Of a DNA stretch of 6,221 nt, positions 1 to 6,221 are shown piece after piece. Position 1 is the stretch's first letter. The number at the start of each line of letters is the position of its first letter. The notes under the pieces are model-generated. The model searched no databases, was not told the DNA's origin, and saw only the letters and a list, made by a program, of their open reading frames with translations. The DNA comes from a virus (lineage: Duplodnaviria; Heunggongvirae; Uroviricota; Caudoviricetes): IMG/VR virus record IMGVR_UViG_2585427792_000015; one strand, written 5' to 3'. Position numbers and translations under genes: made by a program.

Positions 1-140
1 GTTGATGTATCAACACGATTCAACAATACCCGATATTTATTCCATGCCTCCAGCAACGATCTTTCTTCCGCCGTTGCGATTTCCAGATCTACAGCATCCT
101 GCAGTGGCGCAATATACTCACTGAATTCCTGGATGTAGAA
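1..140. repeat. Direct repeat copy A (tfa 3'-end homology)
   Basis: Positions 1-122 align base-for-base with 1050-1171 at roughly 85% identity (hand alignment, not computed); weaker codon-level similarity continues to about 140 / 1189. Confidence 0.7.
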
Positions 141-227
141 CTGTGTGGTGACGGTCTTCCAGCCATTCGGCTCTTGCTGTATCGAAGCATACCAGGCTAT
201 TTCAATATCGCTATGCTGCGGCAGCAT
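1..227 (-). CDS. Tfa-like small protein, partial (3' end runs off the window start); homologous to the C-terminal domain of tail fibre assembly protein
   Basis: Minus-strand ATG at 227-225 with an in-frame TAA immediately upstream (230-228) and an AAGGGG Shine-Dalgarno (complement of 232-237) 4 nt before the ATG. My translation: [75 protein letters not shown]... The last 40 or so residues align with the C-terminus of the full Tfa at 1007-1591 ([41 protein letters not shown]). Not in the supplied ORF track because it is edge-truncated. Confidence 0.6.
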
Positions 228-254
228 TTAACCCCTTGTAATTCATCGCCATAA

Positions 255-283
255 TTGATTTAATTCACAAATAAAACTATAAC
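255..283 (+). promoter_or_regulatory. Candidate sigma70-like promoter for the methyltransferase gene
   Basis: TTGATT at 255-260, a 17-nt spacer, then TATAAC at 278-283, in an A+T-rich 56-bp gap between divergent genes. Pattern match by eye only. Confidence 0.2.
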
Positions 284-952
284 ATGGTGAAATCAATGAA
301 AAAAAACACAGATGATGGGGCTAAAATTTACACACCACTTACCCTAAAGCTTTATGACTGGTGGGTTTTGGGAGTATCAAATCGGCTTGCATGGGGATGT
401 CCTACAAAGGAACACCTTCTTCCACACTTTCTGGAACATGTAGGTAACAACCATCTGGATATTGGTGTTGGAACTGGGTTTTACCTTACTCACGTACCTG
501 AGAGTAGTCTGATATCTTTAATGGATTTGAACGAAGCTAGCCTGAACGCGGCATCTACAAGGGCTGGGGAATCAAAAATTAAACATAAAATTAGCCATGA
601 TGTTTTTGAACCTTATCCCGCGGCGTTACATGGTCAATTTGATTCCATTTCCATGTTTTACCTTCTTCACTGCCTGCCTGGAAATATATCTACAAAAAGC
701 TGTGTAATACGCAATGCGGCGCAGGCCTTAACTGACGATGGAACTCTATACGGAGCCACAATTCTTGGCGATGGAGTTGTGCACAATAGCTTCGGTCAAA
801 AACTGATGCGCATTTACAATCAGAAAGGCATCTTTTCAAACACAAAAGATTCCGAAGAAGGCTTAACACATATACTCTCAGAGCATTTCGAGAATGTTAA
901 AACCAAGGTTCAAGGTACTGTAGTAATGTTTTCCGCTTCAGGGAAAAAATAG
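284..952 (+). CDS. Class I (Rossmann-fold) SAM-dependent methyltransferase, UbiE/COQ5-like; substrate unknown
   Basis: 222-aa ORF ending in TAG at 950-952. Contains the SAM-binding motif I HLDIGVGTGFY, an acidic post-I residue (LMDLNEAS), a motif II-like FDSISMFYLLHC and a motif III-like LTDDGTLYG. The N-terminal LYDWWVLGVSNRLAW resembles the YD...HRLW element of UbiE-type methyltransferases (recalled, not searched). Composition is clearly more A+T-rich than the flanking tail genes. Start is ambiguous: ATG 284 has no obvious SD, while ATG 296 follows GGTGA (286-290) at 5-nt spacing. Confidence 0.8.
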   Translation: MVKSMKKNTDDGAKIYTPLTLKLYDWWVLGVSNRLAWGCPTKEHLLPHFLEHVGNNHLDIGVGTGFYLTHVPESSLISLMDLNEASLNAASTRAGESKIKHKISHDVFEPYPAALHGQFDSISMFYLLHCLPGNISTKSCVIRNAAQALTDDGTLYGATILGDGVVHNSFGQKLMRIYNQKGIFSNTKDSEEGLTHILSEHFENVKTKVQGTVVMFSASGKK

Positions 953-959
953 CATCCAA

Positions 960-992
960 CCGCAGCACGTTCTTGCTTAAGACGTGCTGCGG
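960..992. terminator. Perfect 11-bp inverted repeat hairpin between convergent genes; possible bidirectional terminator
   Basis: CCGCAGCACGT (960-970), 11-nt loop, ACGTGCTGCGG (982-992). Sits between the methyltransferase stop (952) and the tfa stop (1007). On the minus strand a T-run (complement of 944-949) lies about 10 nt past the stem; there is no U-tract on the plus strand. Confidence 0.35.
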
Positions 993-1006
993 CATAATCC
1001 CAATGA

Positions 1007-1591
1007 TTACTCCCTGACAGGGTTCGTAGGCCACTCAATATCAGGTGCAGTTGATGTATCAACACGGTTCAGCAACACCCGATACTTCTTCCAGGCTTCC
1101 AGCAATGAGGTTTCTTCCTCCGTTGCAATTTCCAGATCTGCAGCATCCTGAAGCGGCGCAATATGCTCACTGGCTACCTGCATCAGGTTGTTTTTTGTTT
1201 CTTCCGCCTCCCGGATCCGGAACAGTTTTTCTGCTTCCGTATCCTTCACCCAGGCTGTGCCGTTCCACTTCTGAAACTCCCCTTCCGGCGATAACCAGGT
1301 AACATTTTCCGGTAACGGACCGAGTTCAGAAATAAATAACGCGTCGCCGGAAGCCACGTCATAAACCGTTTTACCCCGATGATCTTCAACGAGATGCCAC
1401 GATGACTCATCACTGTTGAAAACAGCCACGAAGCCAGCCGGAATATCTGGCGGTGCAATATCGGTACTGTTTGCTGGCAGACCTGTATGAGGCGGAATAT
1501 ATGCATCACCTTCACCAATAAATTCATTAGTTCCGGACAACAGATTATAAATTTTTATGGTCCGTGGTTGTTCACTCATTCTGAATGCCAT
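1007..1591 (-). CDS. tfa: Tail fibre assembly protein (chaperone)
   Basis: 194 aa, [18 protein letters not shown]..., which matches lambda Tfa as I remember it in length and N-terminus. Its ATG overlaps the stf stop in TAATG (1589-1593), the usual stf-tfa coupling. Confidence 0.93.
1050..1189. repeat. Direct repeat copy B (3' end of the intact tfa)
   Basis: Same orientation as copy A; both start GTTGATGTATCAACACG. The two copies bracket the methyltransferase gene. Confidence 0.7.
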
Positions 1592-4500
1592 TATGCAAGC
1601 CTCACAATATAGTTAAATGCGATGTTTTTGACGGTGTTTTCCGCGTTACCAGCAGCGTTAACGGTGATGGTGTGTCCATGTGAACCAATCGCAACGGAGT
1701 GCGTATGAGCACCAATACCGACAGTATGTGCATGTGCACCAGCATTTGCTGCAGTACCAGACAGCGAGTGGGTATGAGCACCTGCTGACTGTGTCTGAAT
1801 ACGTTGATAATACGATCTACTGGAAGAAGTCTCCGGGCTTACTTGATACTGTGAATCCTTGACATAAGTGAACCCACCGCCATCATAAAATGCTAACGCA
1901 GAACCGCCGCCTCCCGGCCAACGAATACCATTACCATGAGTATGAGCACCGGCAGACCCCGTAGAGCCACTCAGACTGTGCGTATGCGACCCGGTGTTAT
2001 TCGTGGATTTAGTGCCGTAATCAAACGACGATGTGGTTTTCGTCCCCAAATCCGTACTGGATGCGCTGGCGCTGTGGGTGTGCGATTTTATGCCGTCCCG
2101 TTCCTGAGACAATACGGCCCGGCCACTGGCGGGTTTGCCCTTGATTGTCCAGCCGCGCATATCTGGAATAACACCTGAAGGATAGGCAATAGCCAGTTTC
2201 GGATATGCTGCCTTATCAAACGTCTGCCCCTGCATGATTGCATAACCTGCAGGTGGTGTATCTGATGGCCACGGCAGCGGAACACCTGGCGGAAACGCTT
2301 CAATATTTGCCGAGCCGTCAAATTTTACGCCGTTAATTGTCCTTGCAGTTTGCAATTTGGTTGCTGTGCTTGCATTACCCGATAAAGATCCAGTGATACC
2401 ACCACTCGCGTTTAATTTAGTTGCAATTGTAACATTGCCAGTATGGTTACTAATTATAAACGGCCTTAAGCTATTGTGCGTACCAAGACTGTTACCCGAA
2501 TCTGTCAACATAAAATATGTGTTTGATCCATCATTTCGGATAAAGAATCCATAGTTGCCATAGGCAATACGCAGACCATTTGCTGACCTTGAAATAACCT
2601 CACCAGCAGCAGTTAAACCACCTGAAAGAGTCCCTCCAGTTAATGCCAATGCCCCAATATTTGAAGGGGTCAATGTGATATTTGCACTACCATCAAATGA
2701 CACACCGTTAATCGTTCTGGCTGCCTGAAGTTTCGTGGCGGTCGCAGCATTACCTGTAGTGTTTTGATTACCGGTAGCGTTGACTCCAGGCAAGTTGATA
2801 TCTGCCGATCCATCAAATGCCACGCCCCCAATCTTACGTGCTGTCTTGATCTTGGTCGCAGTATCTGCGTTTCCGGTCAAATTACCAGTAACACTACCAC
2901 CAACTTTTAGTCCATTACCGATGGACACCAACCCTGATCTTAAGTTTATAGAGAATGGTCTTAATGAACCGATGTCTCCATTTTCCCCCTCCCCTTCATT
3001 AGTCGGAATAAGATGAAGATAATCTTCGGAACGCCTAAAAATAAGGCCAAAGGCTTGGTTGAATATTCGAAGAGCATTTATCGTGCTGATTTTTAACTGC
3101 CCTCCCATTGTGTCGCCAGTTTTTTGAACTGAACTATCTTTAACAGTTTTAACTGCCTTTGGCGTTGCCGCCAGCTTTTCACTGGTGCTGTTTGTTGCAC
3201 TGCTGAGCTGTACTATCCCCTTTTTCGTCGTGCTCGCATCCTCAAGCCCCACGGCGGATGCAATATCCTCTGCCCGTTTTGCCGCTGTTTCGGCACGCGT
3301 TGCCGCGGATTCAGCAGCAACTTTGCTCTGAGATGCCGCCGTCGCACTGCCTGCCGCCTCTGATGCTTTCGTTGTTGCTGTCGTGGCACTACCTTTCGCT
3401 GCTGACGCTTGTCTGGTCGCCTCATCTTTTGAAGCAGACGCAGATGATGCCGATGACGCCGCTGAACTGGCTGACGATGCGGCTGCCGCCTTAGAGGAAG
3501 CAGCATTGTCTGCTGAAGTCTTTGCATTTGTTTCAGAGGTTTTTGCTGCAGAAGCAGACCTCGCTGCTGCAGTGGCTTGCTCAGTGGCTTTGCCAGCCTT
3601 CGTTGTGGCTGTTGAAGCGGATGATGCGGCGCTTTCTGCCGATTTTCCGGCGGCGGTGGCACTGGCTGAGGCCTGCCCGGCACTTGTTGACGCGGCACTG
3701 GCAGATAATGCAGCCGCTGTTTTTGAACCTGCCGCAGCCGAGGCGCTCTGTCCCGCTGCCGTTTCAGAAGACCTGGCGTTTGTCTCAGACGTCTTTGCCG
3801 CCTTCGCGGAATTGCCTGCCGCCGTTGCCGAGGAAGCGGCACTACTGGCGCTTGATGATGCGTTCGTTTCTGATGATTTCGCTGCCTCTTTTGAGGCCGC
3901 CGCATCCCGGGCTGAGGTGGCTGCTTCTGACGCCTTCGTGGTCGCGGCGGATGCAGAAGTGGCTGCTGATTGTTGTGACGCTTCCGCATTCGTTTCTGAC
4001 GTTTTCGCCGCACCGGCACTGGTAGCTGCCGCGCTTTTTGAGGACTCTGCAGCAGCAGCACTTTTCGATGCTTCACTGGCCTTTGTCGATGCCGTTCCTG
4101 CGCTGGAAGACGCTGACTGAGCCGACGACGCGGCCTGTCCGGCTGACGTGCTGGCGGCACGTGCTGAGGCTGCAGCATCGGTTGCATGAGTTACCGCCTC
4201 GCTGGCTGATGCACTGGCATCGCTGGCTGATTTTTTCGCGGCTGCCGTATTCTGTGCAACCGCGGAGGCGTTACGTGACACCTCTTCCACCATCTGCTCA
4301 AAGCGGCGCAGTGCCTCCGGCCGGACATCATCCTCCGTCATGGCACCGAGAAAATCATTCAGCGTACCTGGTCTGGAACCTTCATAGACGGTAATGGTCC
4401 CGGCATGTGAAGGCGGAAAACCTTCAACCAGCAGGGTGACGCTGTACTGCCCGTACTCAACGTCCATGCTGTAACGCCCGGCTTCATCCGGATTTTCTGA

Positions 4501-4617
4501 GGCCAGCGTGTTCACCACCACCGTGGTGCTGTTACGTTTTGCTTTCAGCTGGATTGTGCAGTTCTGTACCGGTTTTCCTGTGCCGTCTTTCAGTACACCT
4601 GAAATCTTTACTGCCAT
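1591..4617 (-). CDS. stf: Side tail fibre protein
   Basis: Single uninterrupted ORF. The track starts it at a GTG (4623); an ATG at 4617-4615 gives [26 protein letters not shown], the lambda Stf N-terminus as I recall it, with a GGGG-containing SD 5 nt upstream. Has a long Ala/Ser/Thr-rich region with four AAKTSETNA units, three copies of a roughly 23-aa TATKLQ(T/A)ARTINGV.FDGSANI repeat, and a C-terminal His-rich GAHTHS / HxH region ending [15 protein letters not shown]. Confidence 0.93.
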
Positions 4618-4626
4618 ATTCACCCC

Positions 4627-4655
4627 ACAAAAAAGCCCGCCTGAACCGGCGGGCT
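4627..4655 (-). terminator. Rho-independent terminator downstream of lom
   Basis: On the minus strand an 8-bp GC-rich stem (4648-4655 pairing with 4634-4641, loop 4642-4647) is followed directly by a T6 tract (complement of 4629-4634). It lies 27 nt past the lom stop and just upstream of the stf SD and start. Confidence 0.65.
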
Positions 4656-4681
4656 GTCATAACACTGTGTTACCTGGCTAA

Positions 4682-5281
4682 TCAGAATTTATAACCGACA
4701 CCCACGATGAAACCGTCAGTGCGCCAGTCACCACTGCCGGAGCCTTCATAAGCAATATCAATGGCCACGGATTCGGTCGGGTTAAACTGCACGCCAGCCC
4801 CCCACGCCAGAGACGTGTTGCTGTGGCGACCGTCATCACTTCCGGTCAGCACATCGTGCTTTTTCCCCTTGTTGTCAGTTACGCGAAGATAATCCCCGGA
4901 GAAAGTCGACACACGGCTGTAAGCTACACCCGCCATCGCATACGCGCTGAACCATTCATTCACGCGCACAGACGGCCCCGCCATTACGCTGAACCAGCGG
5001 TTACGAACGGAATCTTCATGCCAGCGGGTATCGCTGTAACGGGTCAGCTGGCGATTCTTGTCTCCTGCATAGCTGAATGACGTCACCATCCCCAGTGTGT
5101 CCGTAAACTCATAACGGTATTTCACGTTAATCCCGTTCAGATCATCGCTGCCGGGGACGTTCGTCGAGGCATGAAGATACCCCGCGCTCAGCGTGGACTG
5201 ATGTTCAGACGCCCATGCAGGCGCACCGGATACGGCCAGACAAATGGCTGCGGACAAAATTGCTGCACAAACTTTACGCAT
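4682..5281 (-). CDS. lom: Lom, outer-membrane beta-barrel protein of the Ail/Lom family
   Basis: 199 aa with a Sec-type signal peptide (MRKVCAAILSAAICLAVSGAPAWA) and the C-terminal DIAYEGSGSGDWRTDGFIVGVGYKF with terminal Phe typical of OMP barrels; matches lambda Lom as I recall it. GAGAGG SD upstream of the ATG at 5281-5279. Confidence 0.93.
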   Translation of the reverse strand: MRKVCAAILSAAICLAVSGAPAWASEHQSTLSAGYLHASTNVPGSDDLNGINVKYRYEFTDTLGMVTSFSYAGDKNRQLTRYSDTRWHEDSVRNRWFSVMAGPSVRVNEWFSAYAMAGVAYSRVSTFSGDYLRVTDNKGKKHDVLTGSDDGRHSNTSLAWGAGVQFNPTESVAIDIAYEGSGSGDWRTDGFIVGVGYKF

Positions 5282-5305
5282 AATTACCTCTCGCTTTTCT
5301 GCAAT

Positions 5306-5330
5306 AAAAAAGGCGTCATTCCTGACGCCC
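5306..5330 (-). terminator. Rho-independent terminator between J and lom
   Basis: On the minus strand a 7-bp stem GGCGTCA / TGACGCC (5323-5329 pairing with 5312-5318, loop 5319-5322) is followed by a T6-7 tract (complement of 5305-5311). It lies 22 nt past the J stop. Confidence 0.6.
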
Positions 5331-5351
5331 TTTATTGGGGTTATAAATATT

Positions 5352-6221
5352 TCAACGAATACTGATGCCGGAAGCGGCTTTTTTGGTCACAATCACCGTA
5401 CAGTCGGTGATATTGCCTGCCCCCTGATTGCCTTTCTGGAAAATCTTAAACTCCAGAGTGACGCTTCCCCTGCCACTCGGCATATCAATAACTGCACTGT
5501 AACTACCGGGAATGGCCCCTTTAGTTTCTCTGGATGCGATTAATACGCCGTTTTTGCGAACTTCAAAACCATAACCCGTGTATCGCGTGCCTCCTGGGTT
5601 ATTTCCGCTCCCCGGATCGTCATACGCTATACCGTTAAAAATAATGGGCGGAATAATAATCTGGCGGTCAAAGTTATGATCATCGCTGATGGTGACTGTA
5701 ACCGTACCGTTTGGTGTTTCCGTGTTACCCCACGTACCGACTTTTTTCGGGAAGGCTTTTGATACAGCTTTAACGAAATCTCCTCTGACCTGGGTCGCCT
5801 CCAGCATGCCCTTAATCGTACAGTTCTGGTTAATCGTGACATTGTTGAGCGTTCCTGAGTTCGCATTCACACTGCCACTGATATCCGCATTTTTCGCCGT
5901 CAGTCTCCCGTCTGATGTCAGGGAAAATGCCGGAGGATTACCGCCGCTGGTAATGGTGGGGGCCGTCAGGCGTTTCAGGAACACTTCATTCATGAATATC
6001 TGATCGCCCTGACCAACAAACATCGGCTTTGTGTTGCCATTCGCAGGATTAATCATCGCAATCCTGTCTGCTGCCAGCAGCACCTGACTCTGCATGCCGT
6101 CAGGGGTGTTCTCAATACCGGCACCGATACCCGCAATATAAAGGCGTCCGTCCTGCATCTGCTGCAGCTTCACTGCCCACATGCTGTTCAGGTTATTATT
6201 TGTATCAACCTGAACCTTCTG
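5352..6221 (-). CDS. J: Host specificity / central tail fibre protein J, C-terminal part (5' end off the window)
   Basis: The track ORF 5352-6182 begins at an internal Met; I translated 6183-6221 in the same frame (QKVQVDTNNNLNS) and found no stop, so the gene continues past the window end. Identity is inferred from its position directly upstream of lom and stf in a lambda-type arrangement, not from a remembered sequence. Confidence 0.8.
   Translation of the reverse strand, partial: QKVQVDTNNNLNSMWAVKLQQMQDGRLYIAGIGAGIENTPDGMQSQVLLAADRIAMINPANGNTKPMFVGQGDQIFMNEVFLKRLTAPTITSGGNPPAFSLTSDGRLTAKNADISGSVNANSGTLNNVTINQNCTIKGMLEATQVRGDFVKAVSKAFPKKVGTWGNTETPNGTVTVTISDDHNFDRQIIIPPIIFNGIAYDDPGSGNNPGGTRYTGYGFEVRKNGVLIASRETKGAIPGSYSAVIDMPSGRGSVTLEFKIFQKGNQGAGNITDCTVIVTKKAASGISIR

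Follow-up and report, generated by a model that had tools for sequence, protein, structure and literature searches.

The 6,221-nt stretch of DNA analysed here (the window) represents the distal end of a lambdoid prophage, and in it two direct repeats of the 3′ end of tfa lie on either side of a methyltransferase gene. The right copy is the 3′ end of a working λ-type tfa, and the left copy is the relic of a second, diverged tfa allele. We propose that the arrangement as a whole consists of a working tfa, a cargo gene and the relic of a second tfa allele that arose by illegitimate fusion, with the repeats acting as homology arms, a reading to which we give a probability of about 0.8.

Read from its right-hand end, the window contains J, lom, stf and tfa, then a hairpin, the YbcY methyltransferase gene in convergent orientation, a promoter-like spacer and a short ORF resembling tfaX of K-12. 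The first four genes lie on the minus strand. The tail tip gene J, of which the 3′ part is present (5352–6221), runs off the window and, with lom (4682–5281; an Ail/Lom outer-membrane protein), provides context for the side tail fibre gene stf (1591–4623; 1010 aa, with phage_tail_N, Gp34_trimer, Collar and Phage_fiber matches) and for an intact tail fibre assembly gene, tfa (1007–1591; 194 aa), which has 94% nucleotide identity to λ orf-194. In complete genomes, the tfa-ybcY-tfaX module follows stf-tfa in the att-proximal position, with the potB or ompW chromosomal flank about 0.3–0.8 kb away. Between the convergent tfa and methyltransferase genes stands a GC-rich hairpin (959–993; −27.9 kcal/mol, z = −5.2). 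Since the homology to λ starts at 958 (the match covers 958–1600) and includes this hairpin, we assign it to the λ-type tfa unit; λ itself differs from the window in having no methyltransferase and no second tfa fragment. The hairpin is a putative bidirectional terminator and is labelled only as such, because a consensus terminator scan, for want of an adjoining T-run, did not call it.

The preliminary description had recognised by eye two segments of about 85% identity in the same orientation, and the computed alignment bears this out: positions 1–134 match 1050–1183 with 20 mismatches and no gaps (85.1% identity, E = 4e-39; repeat search, MAFFT and self-BLAST), and this pair is the sole significant self-match of the window on either strand. 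The outer limits first proposed, 140 and 1189, lie about 6 nt too far out. Both copies are on the minus strand. The right one covers tfa codons ~137–180, in the conserved C-terminal domain, and the left one is the section of the TfaX-like ORF that encodes the Tfa C-terminal domain, corresponding to positions 75–131 of the Pfam Caudo_TAP profile. The tfa homology proper of the left copy stops near 123, where the BLAST HSPs end, and positions 124–134 are microhomology at a fusion junction. The window edge truncates the left copy; its full extent is seen in complete genomes, which add about 40 nt up to its own stop codon. In Eco889 (L002), the complete left copy is at 8961–9134, window position 1 being locus position 9001 and the continuation 8961–9000; strain 042 (L001) has a longer repeat, of 216 nt with 90% identity, that takes in the hairpin beyond the stop codon. 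The homology of the right copy with complete left copies reaches the tfa stop at window 1007, or 958 in 042-type loci. The longest block identical in both copies is 38 nt long (1029–1066; left-copy counterpart −21 to 17).

The differences between the copies are mostly synonymous (dS 0.49, dN 0.05, dN/dS 0.10), and the copies are therefore better understood as two diverged tfa alleles than as the products of a local duplication. The earlier argument that this level of divergence speaks against a recent duplication holds, in that the copies diverged as working tfa alleles. Over the same 123 nt, the left copy is 90.2% identical to K-12 tfaD and 87% identical to the window's own right copy, a comparison that, like the dN/dS, speaks against a recent tandem duplication.

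The ORF that contains the left copy (1–227, minus strand; codons 1–75 inside the window) has an ATG at 227–225 and an AAGGGG Shine-Dalgarno-like motif at 232–237. It is 88 aa long in Eco889, matches PHROG 2341 over its full length and is labelled by PGAP “tail fiber assembly protein, incomplete, missing N-terminus”. A search of 5.8 billion proteins for a full-length parent of the TfaX N-terminus yielded short fragments only, and no full-length protein in which this N-terminus is followed by a Tfa N-domain. The missing full-length parent led to the explanation that TfaX is a chimera, which was then confirmed through Citrobacter freundii (L167), in which an intact 80-aa gene, orf80 (3699–3941), adjoins a methyltransferase gene 90% identical to that of the window; the homology of this Citrobacter DNA is limited to window 141–964. 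As judged from the alignments, TfaX consists of 34 codons of an unrelated phage gene of ~80 aa, followed in frame by the last ~54 codons of a tfa. The orf80-derived part (126–227, minus strand; codons 1–34) partially matches PHROG 3893, and a three-way alignment places the change from orf80-derived sequence (5′) to tfa-derived sequence (3′) at a CAGG..AG microhomology (121–132, minus strand). The orf80 family was found in 47 phage records, and homologues occur in Klebsiella, Erwinia, Cronobacter and HK225/mEp390-type phages. At the other end of the ORF, the relic C-termini differ among loci (ANPVRE, TSPAE, EEPDTM, or truncated), and about 78% of 79 loci have an ORF of 88–89 aa with a tfa-like end. 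The K-12 “protein TfaX” is thereby accounted for as a chimeric leftover.

The divergent intergenic spacer between this ORF and the methyltransferase gene (228–283) contains promoter-like hexamers. TTGATT (255–260) and TATAAC (278–283), 17 nt apart, point toward the methyltransferase, and TTAACC-16-CATAAT covers 228–255. The same hexamers are present in the K-12 ybcY/tfaX spacer, in which an RNA polymerase sigma-70 site and H-NS binding have been mapped by genomic SELEX (PMC3946193).

A survey of 5426 complete E. coli genomes finds the methyltransferase gene in 3832 (71%) and the gene together with an attached relic in no fewer than 3436. Among 80 IMG/VR loci, its mean pairwise identity is 99.8% while the flanks fall below 90% in over half of the pairs, a conservation relative to the flanks that is inflated, since the loci were picked as the best methyltransferase matches. 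The relative orientation of relic, methyltransferase and tfa is the same in all 80. Mosaic joints in these loci, read from BLAST HSP ends and hence approximate markers only, fall at −20/−21, −39, 3 and 20–28, and at 992, 1101, 1127 and 1135; that is, they cluster within both repeat copies. The commonest left joint of the cassette, −20/−21, lies in the left-copy counterpart of the 38-nt identical block, and 10 of 77 left copies are themselves right-type/left-type mosaics. It had been suggested that the cargo was captured or exchanged by recombination between tfa-like genes. The joints in both copies uphold exchange, but the original capture appears to have been of another kind, an illegitimate in-frame fusion of orf80 with tfa. 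The view that the repeats bracket the methyltransferase gene likewise describes the window correctly without stating a requirement: the left relic belongs to the cassette as a constant component and occurs also where there is no second tfa copy (L066 type), so the bracket reflects the position of the cassette. A locus with three apparent copies of the tfa C-domain (L166) was set aside as a probable scaffolding artefact, as the assembly is a draft with N at the junction. As a separate observation, the related locus L066 has the gene of a type III NEL/LRR effector inserted after the chaperone gene and before the methyltransferase cassette.

At potB, the site is “filled” in 823 complete genomes and “empty” in 46. 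The empty form is right-type through the repeat and left-type from the 38-nt identical block (1029–1066) on, so that its junction falls in the longest identical block; the direct join of tfa to the left flank, which had been predicted from the window, thus exists. A second filled/empty pair is formed by L158 and L084/L068. A junction in the 38-nt block is predicted by repeat-mediated deletion and by insertion alike, and the empty form at potB is either a deletion product or the pre-insertion state, the data fitting either. With no more than 38 nt of unbroken identity and 85% identity overall, the two copies would be expected to recombine with each other only rarely, which is a point against the proposal.

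For the order of events and the recombination pathway, we infer the following course, in which the founding unequal crossover is reconstructed from present-day sequences and was not observed. An ancestral accessory unit, made up of the methyltransferase gene and the divergent orf80 of ~80 aa, would have followed tfa in the genome of one phage. At the CAGG..AG microhomology, an illegitimate crossover would then have fused codon ~34 of orf80, in frame, with codon ~137 of the tfa of another phage, so that past the cargo there was a further tfa C-domain, complete with stop codon and hairpin. In the account of North et al. (2019) given in PMC9608196, the N-domain of Tfa binds the fibre and is variable, whereas the C-terminal domain is conserved. 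The repeat encodes this C-terminal helical domain; it is therefore alike in most tfa alleles and could serve as a homology arm. A homologous crossover in one copy or the other would replace either the tail-fibre genes or, on the opposite side, the att-proximal cargo, and the same exchanges would carry the methyltransferase cassette, itself almost invariant, into further prophages. The empty form, in which tfa is joined to the flank, would result when the two copies recombine with each other or when a filled phage recombines with an unfilled one.

Other origins of the repeat have to be weighed against this proposal. The direct orientation of the copies, and the stop codon and hairpin on both copies in 042-type loci, would be expected if the tfa 3′ end had been duplicated locally in tandem, as a long target duplication upon insertion of the methyltransferase gene, and had then diverged in place. 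We consider this very improbable, because a dN/dS of 0.10 at a dS of 0.49 denotes protein-level constraint on both copies, unlike a non-functional duplicate, and because the inner edge of the left copy is fused to the unrelated orf80; moreover, the 3′ ends of left copies match differing resident tfa alleles together with their flanks, and the absence of a transposase argues against a target duplication. A transposable element with a target-site duplication was rejected as well, there being only two ORFs between repeats that are 134–216 nt long and 10–15% diverged. That the window holds the remnant of a Din-type (Gin/Cin/Pin) invertible tail-fibre segment with duplicated alternative tfa genes is hardly credible, although the likeness is real: the Din-family segments (Mu G, P1 C, e14 P) also have duplicated tfa-type genes beside tail-fibre genes, and some prophages with the window's cassette have a Din-type segment directly beside it, a 3.1-kb invertible segment ~280 nt beyond the right relic that is found in both orientations (L025 versus L027). 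In Din-family segments, however, the duplicates are inverted, with short crossover sites and an invertase, whereas the copies in the window are direct. In addition, the gix-like pattern TAAACCGAGGTWTTNGATAA had 0 matches in the window at up to 3 mismatches, self-BLAST of the window found no inverted self-similarity at E ≤ 1e-3, and the annotated flanks of L001 and L002 contain no invertase or recombinase gene. The judgement of the preliminary description that this is not an invertible tail-fibre segment therefore stands.

A further possibility is that TfaX is a working small protein, either a chaperone reduced to the C-domain or a decoy that hinders tail-fibre assembly, and that selection on TfaX keeps the repeat. 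The intact ORF, with ATG and Shine-Dalgarno-like motif, in ~78% of the sampled loci, its PHROG family of its own (2341) and the RNA polymerase binding at the K-12 spacer (PMC3946193) are in keeping with this idea. The variant ratio (non/N)/(syn/S) points the same way in the tfa-derived part (0.49, from 8 variants only) and the opposite way in the orf80-derived part (~1.05), and the 8–29 variants of the cassette are too few to judge constraint on TfaX. Truncations, frameshifts and foreign C-terminal fusions are many and independent, K-12 TfaX is shortened to 61 aa, and PGAP handles the ORF as a pseudogene. The predicted tfaX −10 hexamer, TTAAAT, overlaps the ATG, so the transcript would begin within the ORF. 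Recent spread of the cassette would explain the conservation of TfaX equally well, and on balance we find a working TfaX unlikely. It would be a still bolder proposal, and an improbable one, that the chimera of orf80 and the Tfa C-domain is expressed and, via the conserved oligomerisation domain, joins or poisons the tail-fibre assembly of co-resident or superinfecting lambdoid phages. The methyltransferase and TfaX would then form a selected module of inter-phage competition or host benefit, with the tfa-derived arm also mobilising it by homologous recombination.

The relic of a second tfa allele, which we prefer as the account of the left copy, has a close counterpart in a familiar place. 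The tfa-ybcY-tfaX arrangement is already annotated in K-12 and thousands of other genomes, and in 042 and Eco889 the region is annotated as the same module. The tfaD-ybcY-tfaX (-appY-ompT) region of the K-12 prophage DLP12 has the same gene order and orientation, and window 28–1445 is 97.7% identical to K-12 582–583 kb. In DLP12, however, ybcY is a pseudogene, tfaD has lost its upstream tail genes and tfaX, of 61 aa, is joined to appY-ompT, whereas tfa, stf and the methyltransferase gene are all intact in the window and the relic in the nearest complete genome retains its own stop codon, adjoining the potB attachment site. A literature search found no description of the cassette or of the repeats, only genome-wide promoter data and gene-context mentions. 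The “exchangeable effector loci” that Tobe et al. reportedly described in 2006 in pathogenic E. coli, whose lambdoid prophages carry them downstream of the tail-fibre genes, occupy the same position, from the tail-fibre chaperone gene to the attachment site, but the window's cargo is a methyltransferase of the small-molecule type and not an effector.

All of this is ordinary phage mosaicism, and exchange at conserved sequences is textbook phage biology. As a discovery, the repeat thus carries little weight; it is a quantified example of how the relic of a conserved chaperone domain can be used as a portable homology arm, which may account for the presence of one accessory gene in 71% of complete E. 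coli genomes and in very different prophage contexts. It is also a warning for annotators and assemblers, since the 3′ ends of tfa genes recur both inside a single prophage and from one prophage to another, and the window itself starts inside such an end.

The very common YbcY methyltransferase is a loose end of more interest than the repeat. Its gene (284–952, plus strand; PHROG 2132), convergent with tfa, encodes a class I SAM-dependent methyltransferase with Pfam matches to Methyltransf_12/23/25/11, and translation probably begins with the ATG at 296, for a product of 218 aa, the length of its homologues. The concept of the “moron” belongs to the lambdoid phage mosaicism described by Hendrix and colleagues, and the unit may be a moron, to judge from its sequence features: it is on the opposite strand, has its own spacer with promoter-like hexamers, ends at the putative terminator hairpin of −27.9 kcal/mol, which has no adjacent T-run, and is lower in GC than the tail genes (38–44% versus 47–56%). 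Searches of NCBIfam, PADLOC and PDB sequences gave no specific function, the sole PADLOC match being a weak one to mad2 (E = 0.0091). The Pfam domains are only the generic class I ones, with no DNA methyltransferase motifs and no target-recognition domain; together with the nearest folds, they speak against a DNA methyltransferase of the restriction-modification type. Those folds, the nearest in the PDB to an AF2 model with a pLDDT of 89.6, are small-molecule or lipid methyltransferases, and the modelled fold suggests a small-molecule or lipid substrate.

The minus strand of the window is the end of a lambdoid tail operon, comprising the 3′ part of J, lom (4682-5281), stf (1591-4623), which encodes a side tail fibre of 1010 aa with phage_tail_N, Gp34_trimer and Collar matches, and tfa (1007-1591), whose 194-aa product matches Caudo_TAP (E=2e-44). 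The tfa DNA is 94% identical to lambda orf-194, and since the homology to lambda spans 958-1600, it takes in a GC-rich hairpin (959-993; -27.9 kcal/mol, z = -5.2) that closely follows the tfa stop codon. An annotated class I SAM-dependent methyltransferase gene of 222 aa (284-952) occupies the plus strand and converges on tfa. Divergent from it, a TfaX-like ORF starts at ATG 227 on the minus strand; in Eco889 it has 88 aa and ends EWPTSPAE. Residues 31-87 of this ORF correspond to positions 75-131 of the Caudo_TAP profile, its C-terminal part, and PGAP labels the ORF 'tail fiber assembly protein, incomplete, missing N-terminus'. Eco889 (L002) is a complete genome carrying the window near-exactly, at 99.9% over window 1-1600 (window position 1 is L002 9001), and its prophage ends about 230 nt past the TfaX-like ORF, at potB; the prophage of strain 042 (L001) ends at a disrupted ompW.

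Against Eco889, window 1-4640 is 98.6% identical and the lom and J segments (4692-6221) only 75-89%, a drop that places a further mosaic joint near 4640-4690. In the middle of stf (3200-4250) lies a long stretch of low complexity, rich in Ala/Ser/Thr, where short internal repeats (families D2-D5) abound. In 042 and Eco889, PGAP calls a 45-aa 'hypothetical protein' at the equivalent of 897-1034 on the minus strand, a stretch that also holds the 3′ end of the methyltransferase gene, the hairpin and the stop codon of tfa; this is very likely a spurious call.

The preliminary description, made by eye, had a direct repeat of about 85% identity flanking the methyltransferase. Repeat search, MAFFT and self-BLAST all find it: 1-134 and 1050-1183 align in the same orientation with 85.1% identity, 20 mismatches and no gaps (E=4e-39). 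By self-BLAST this pair is the sole significant self-similarity of the window, and no inverted self-matches occur there. The left copy, a relic of a tfa 3′ end, is truncated by the window edge; in Eco889 the complete copy spans L002 8961-9134, the extra 40 nt ending in its own stop codon. In strain 042, the repeat is 216 nt long at 90% identity and includes the hairpin downstream of the stop codon. The first nucleotide of the window falls within the repeat, at the point of divergence of the PhiR-type phages (window 3) and 21 nt rightward of the most frequent mosaic joint, and it may be that the assembly broke at this multi-copy sequence.

What is the origin of the two copies? The repeated stretch codes for the Tfa C-terminal domain, which for Mu is described in a passage of PMC9608196 (citing North et al. 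2019) as conserved, helical and mediating oligomerisation, the N-terminal domain being variable and fibre-binding. Across an alignment of 49 codons, 12.5 synonymous and 5.5 non-synonymous changes separate the copies (dS 0.49, dN 0.05, dN/dS 0.10); therefore, nearly all the divergence accrued while both copies encoded working protein. From this pattern of substitutions, we take the left and right copies to be two diverged tfa alleles placed side by side. A local duplication decaying in place is rejected on the same dS and dN/dS values, and the earlier argument from divergence against a recent duplication is thus borne out. In agreement with the two-allele reading, over 123 nt the left copy is 90.2% identical to K-12 tfaD but only 87% identical to the right copy beside it in the window. 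Transposition is rejected too: no transposase gene is present, and both the length and the divergence of the repeats speak against it. An invertible tail-fibre segment, already doubted in the preliminary description, is likewise rejected for the window: the copies are direct, no gix-like site occurs at up to 3 mismatches, and the annotated flanks of L001 and L002 have no invertase gene.

A genuine 3.1-kb invertible segment does lie just beyond a truncated right relic in eight related loci. In two such IMG/VR prophages with the methyltransferase, L025 (2394-5512) and L027, this tail-fibre segment lies in opposite orientations, at 99.5% identity. It holds a pair of Caudo_TAP genes facing opposite ways (175 and 177 aa) together with variable fibre ends, and is edged by the inverted repeats CCGCCATTATCTAAAACCTCGGTTTACAGGAA / TTCTCGTAAACCGAGGTATTCGATAACGGCGG, which we take to resemble gix/cix/pix sites. 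The 7 kb of sequence covered has no invertase gene; the methyltransferase cassette and the truncated right tfa relic sit in the usual place of pin/gin.

In a search of 5.8 billion proteins, the relatives of the 88-aa ORF are all short (about 50-140 aa), and none of them joins its first 30 residues to a Tfa N-domain. Citrobacter freundii has a methyltransferase homologue that is 90% identical, and its DNA homology covers window 141-964 only, a span that takes in the beginning of the divergent ORF and leaves out its tfa portion. There, the ORF start belongs to an intact 80-aa gene, orf80 (L167 3699-3941), of a family found in 47 phage records from Klebsiella, Escherichia (HK225, mEp390), Erwinia, Cronobacter and Pantoea. 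Three-way alignment places the orf80-to-tfa junction at window ~121-132, in frame, with CAGG..AG microhomology. Therefore, the cargo unit proper is window ~134-960, that is, the methyltransferase and the orf80 5′ stub, and the left repeat has an illegitimate fusion as its inner limit. At 38-44%, GC in this unit is below the 47-56% of the tail genes. In P0058, a protein of 103 aa, the Tfa C-domain is preceded by a lambda gpI-like tail-assembly N-terminus (PF06805), and the two meet at nearly the residue (…ASEHIAPLQ) where the orf80 fusion lies; the C-domain start may be a recurrent breakpoint, or simply where homology becomes visible.

Seven of 80 IMG/VR loci have a DUF4376-type tail-fibre chaperone and the left relic alone, so the relic travels with the methyltransferase, and the direct repeat arises wherever the cassette adjoins a Caudo_TAP-type tfa. 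One of these loci, L066, carries a 547-aa type III secretion NEL/LRR E3-ligase effector (5985-7628) between the chaperone gene and the cassette; thus, the same slot collects virulence cargo. An IS3-family element lies beyond its relic. Phage Ayreon has a decayed remnant of the module.

Of 5426 complete E. coli genomes, 3832 (71%) have the methyltransferase gene, in up to four copies and always at ≥95% nucleotide identity. It is joined to the relic (≥80% of window 1-300) in at least 3436 genomes, and 1498 have the complete 1-1600 arrangement. Inducible phages PhiR26_1, PhiR29, PhiR30, ev243, 2G7b, Turner and Kati carry it; the INPHARED phages with the gene are E. coli phages only. Across the 80 loci, mean pairwise identity is 99.8% for the methyltransferase, 98.7% for the orf80 stub and spacer, and 95.5% for the left copy, while for the flanks on both sides the majority of pairs fall below 90%, a contrast exaggerated by the choice of loci as best methyltransferase matches. 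The points where homology to the reference stops cluster within the repeats or at their edges: at window -20/-21 (most loci), -39, 3 and 20-28 for the left side, and at 992, 1101, 1127 and 1135 for the right. Mosaic left copies, with a right-copy-type 3′ half and a left-copy-type 5′ half, number 10 of 77, and several right copies have patches of left-type alleles. The relics end in at least three natural Tfa C-termini (ANPVRE, TSPAE, EEPDTM) or else in truncations or foreign fusions, as expected if the 3′ part were repeatedly replaced by each recipient's resident tfa. Overall, this is well-resolved but ordinary lambdoid mosaicism, already annotated in K-12. An apparent third tfa C-domain copy adjoining potB in draft genome GCA_009680495.1 (L166 5001-5312), with N at the junction, is probably a scaffolding artefact due to the repeat.

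At the potB site, 823 complete genomes are filled (potB flank, relic, methyltransferase) and 46 are empty, with full-length tfa directly at the same flank, as in O104:H4 2009EL-2071 (annotated J-lom-stf-tfa-potB); the predicted joining of tfa to the left flank is thus found. In the empty locus L159, tfa has the right-copy allele at all diagnostic repeat sites and then the left-copy 3′ end and flank, the switch falling within a 38-nt block identical in both copies (window -21..17 = 1029..1066). A second, independent pair (L158 empty; L084 and L068 filled) differs from the first in its flank and its Tfa C-terminus, and here too the alleles switch within the C-domain. Judged from sequence, the empty structures would fit recombination between the copies and, equally, an unfilled starting state for a double crossover importing the cassette. 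The preliminary reading, that the cargo was captured or exchanged by recombination between tfa-like genes, is largely right, except that the founding event was probably an orf80::tfa fusion, the relic belongs to the cassette, and the filled/empty change may have run in either direction.

A functional TfaX is an unlikely alternative. In its favour, the ORF is intact in ~78% of loci and has its own PHROG family. Against it, many independent truncations exist, the K-12 allele has only 61 aa, and the N-terminal part looks neutral, on polymorphism counts too small to be decisive.

The methyltransferase likely starts at ATG 296 and is probably 218 aa long, because this is the length of its homologues and PHROG profile; the annotated ATG 284 abuts a predicted -10 hexamer (278-283). 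Its family is PHROG 2132, annotated 'unknown'. In a confident AF2 model (pLDDT 89.6), the predicted fold resembles small-molecule and lipid methyltransferases, the nearest solved folds (TM 0.55-0.66) being juvenile hormone acid, phosphoethanolamine, phosphatidylethanolamine and natural-product C/O-methyltransferases; domain and defence-system searches gave no sign of a DNA methyltransferase. Homologues at 56-68% identity sit amid ordinary chromosomal genes in Enterobacter and Salmonella, and a host gene of this kind is the probable source of the phage gene.

K-12 DLP12 has the same arrangement, tfaD - ybcY (pseudogene) - tfaX - appY - ompT, and this stretch is 97.7% identical to window 28-1445. 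Its ybcY/tfaX spacer has an RNA polymerase sigma-70 site and H-NS binding by genomic SELEX, with a predicted ybcY promoter, TTGATT-17-TATAAC (PMC3946193), whose hexamers also occur in the window (255-260 and 278-283). For tfaX, the predicted -10 (TTAAAT) runs into the start codon of the ORF, and thus a transcript from it would start within the ORF. Beyond the truncated relic, K-12 has appY and ompT (L005 9682-11634; joint within the relic at window 28), and phage PhiR26_1 an alpha/beta-hydrolase (494 aa) and an omptin (L004 474-3098; joint within the relic at window 3).
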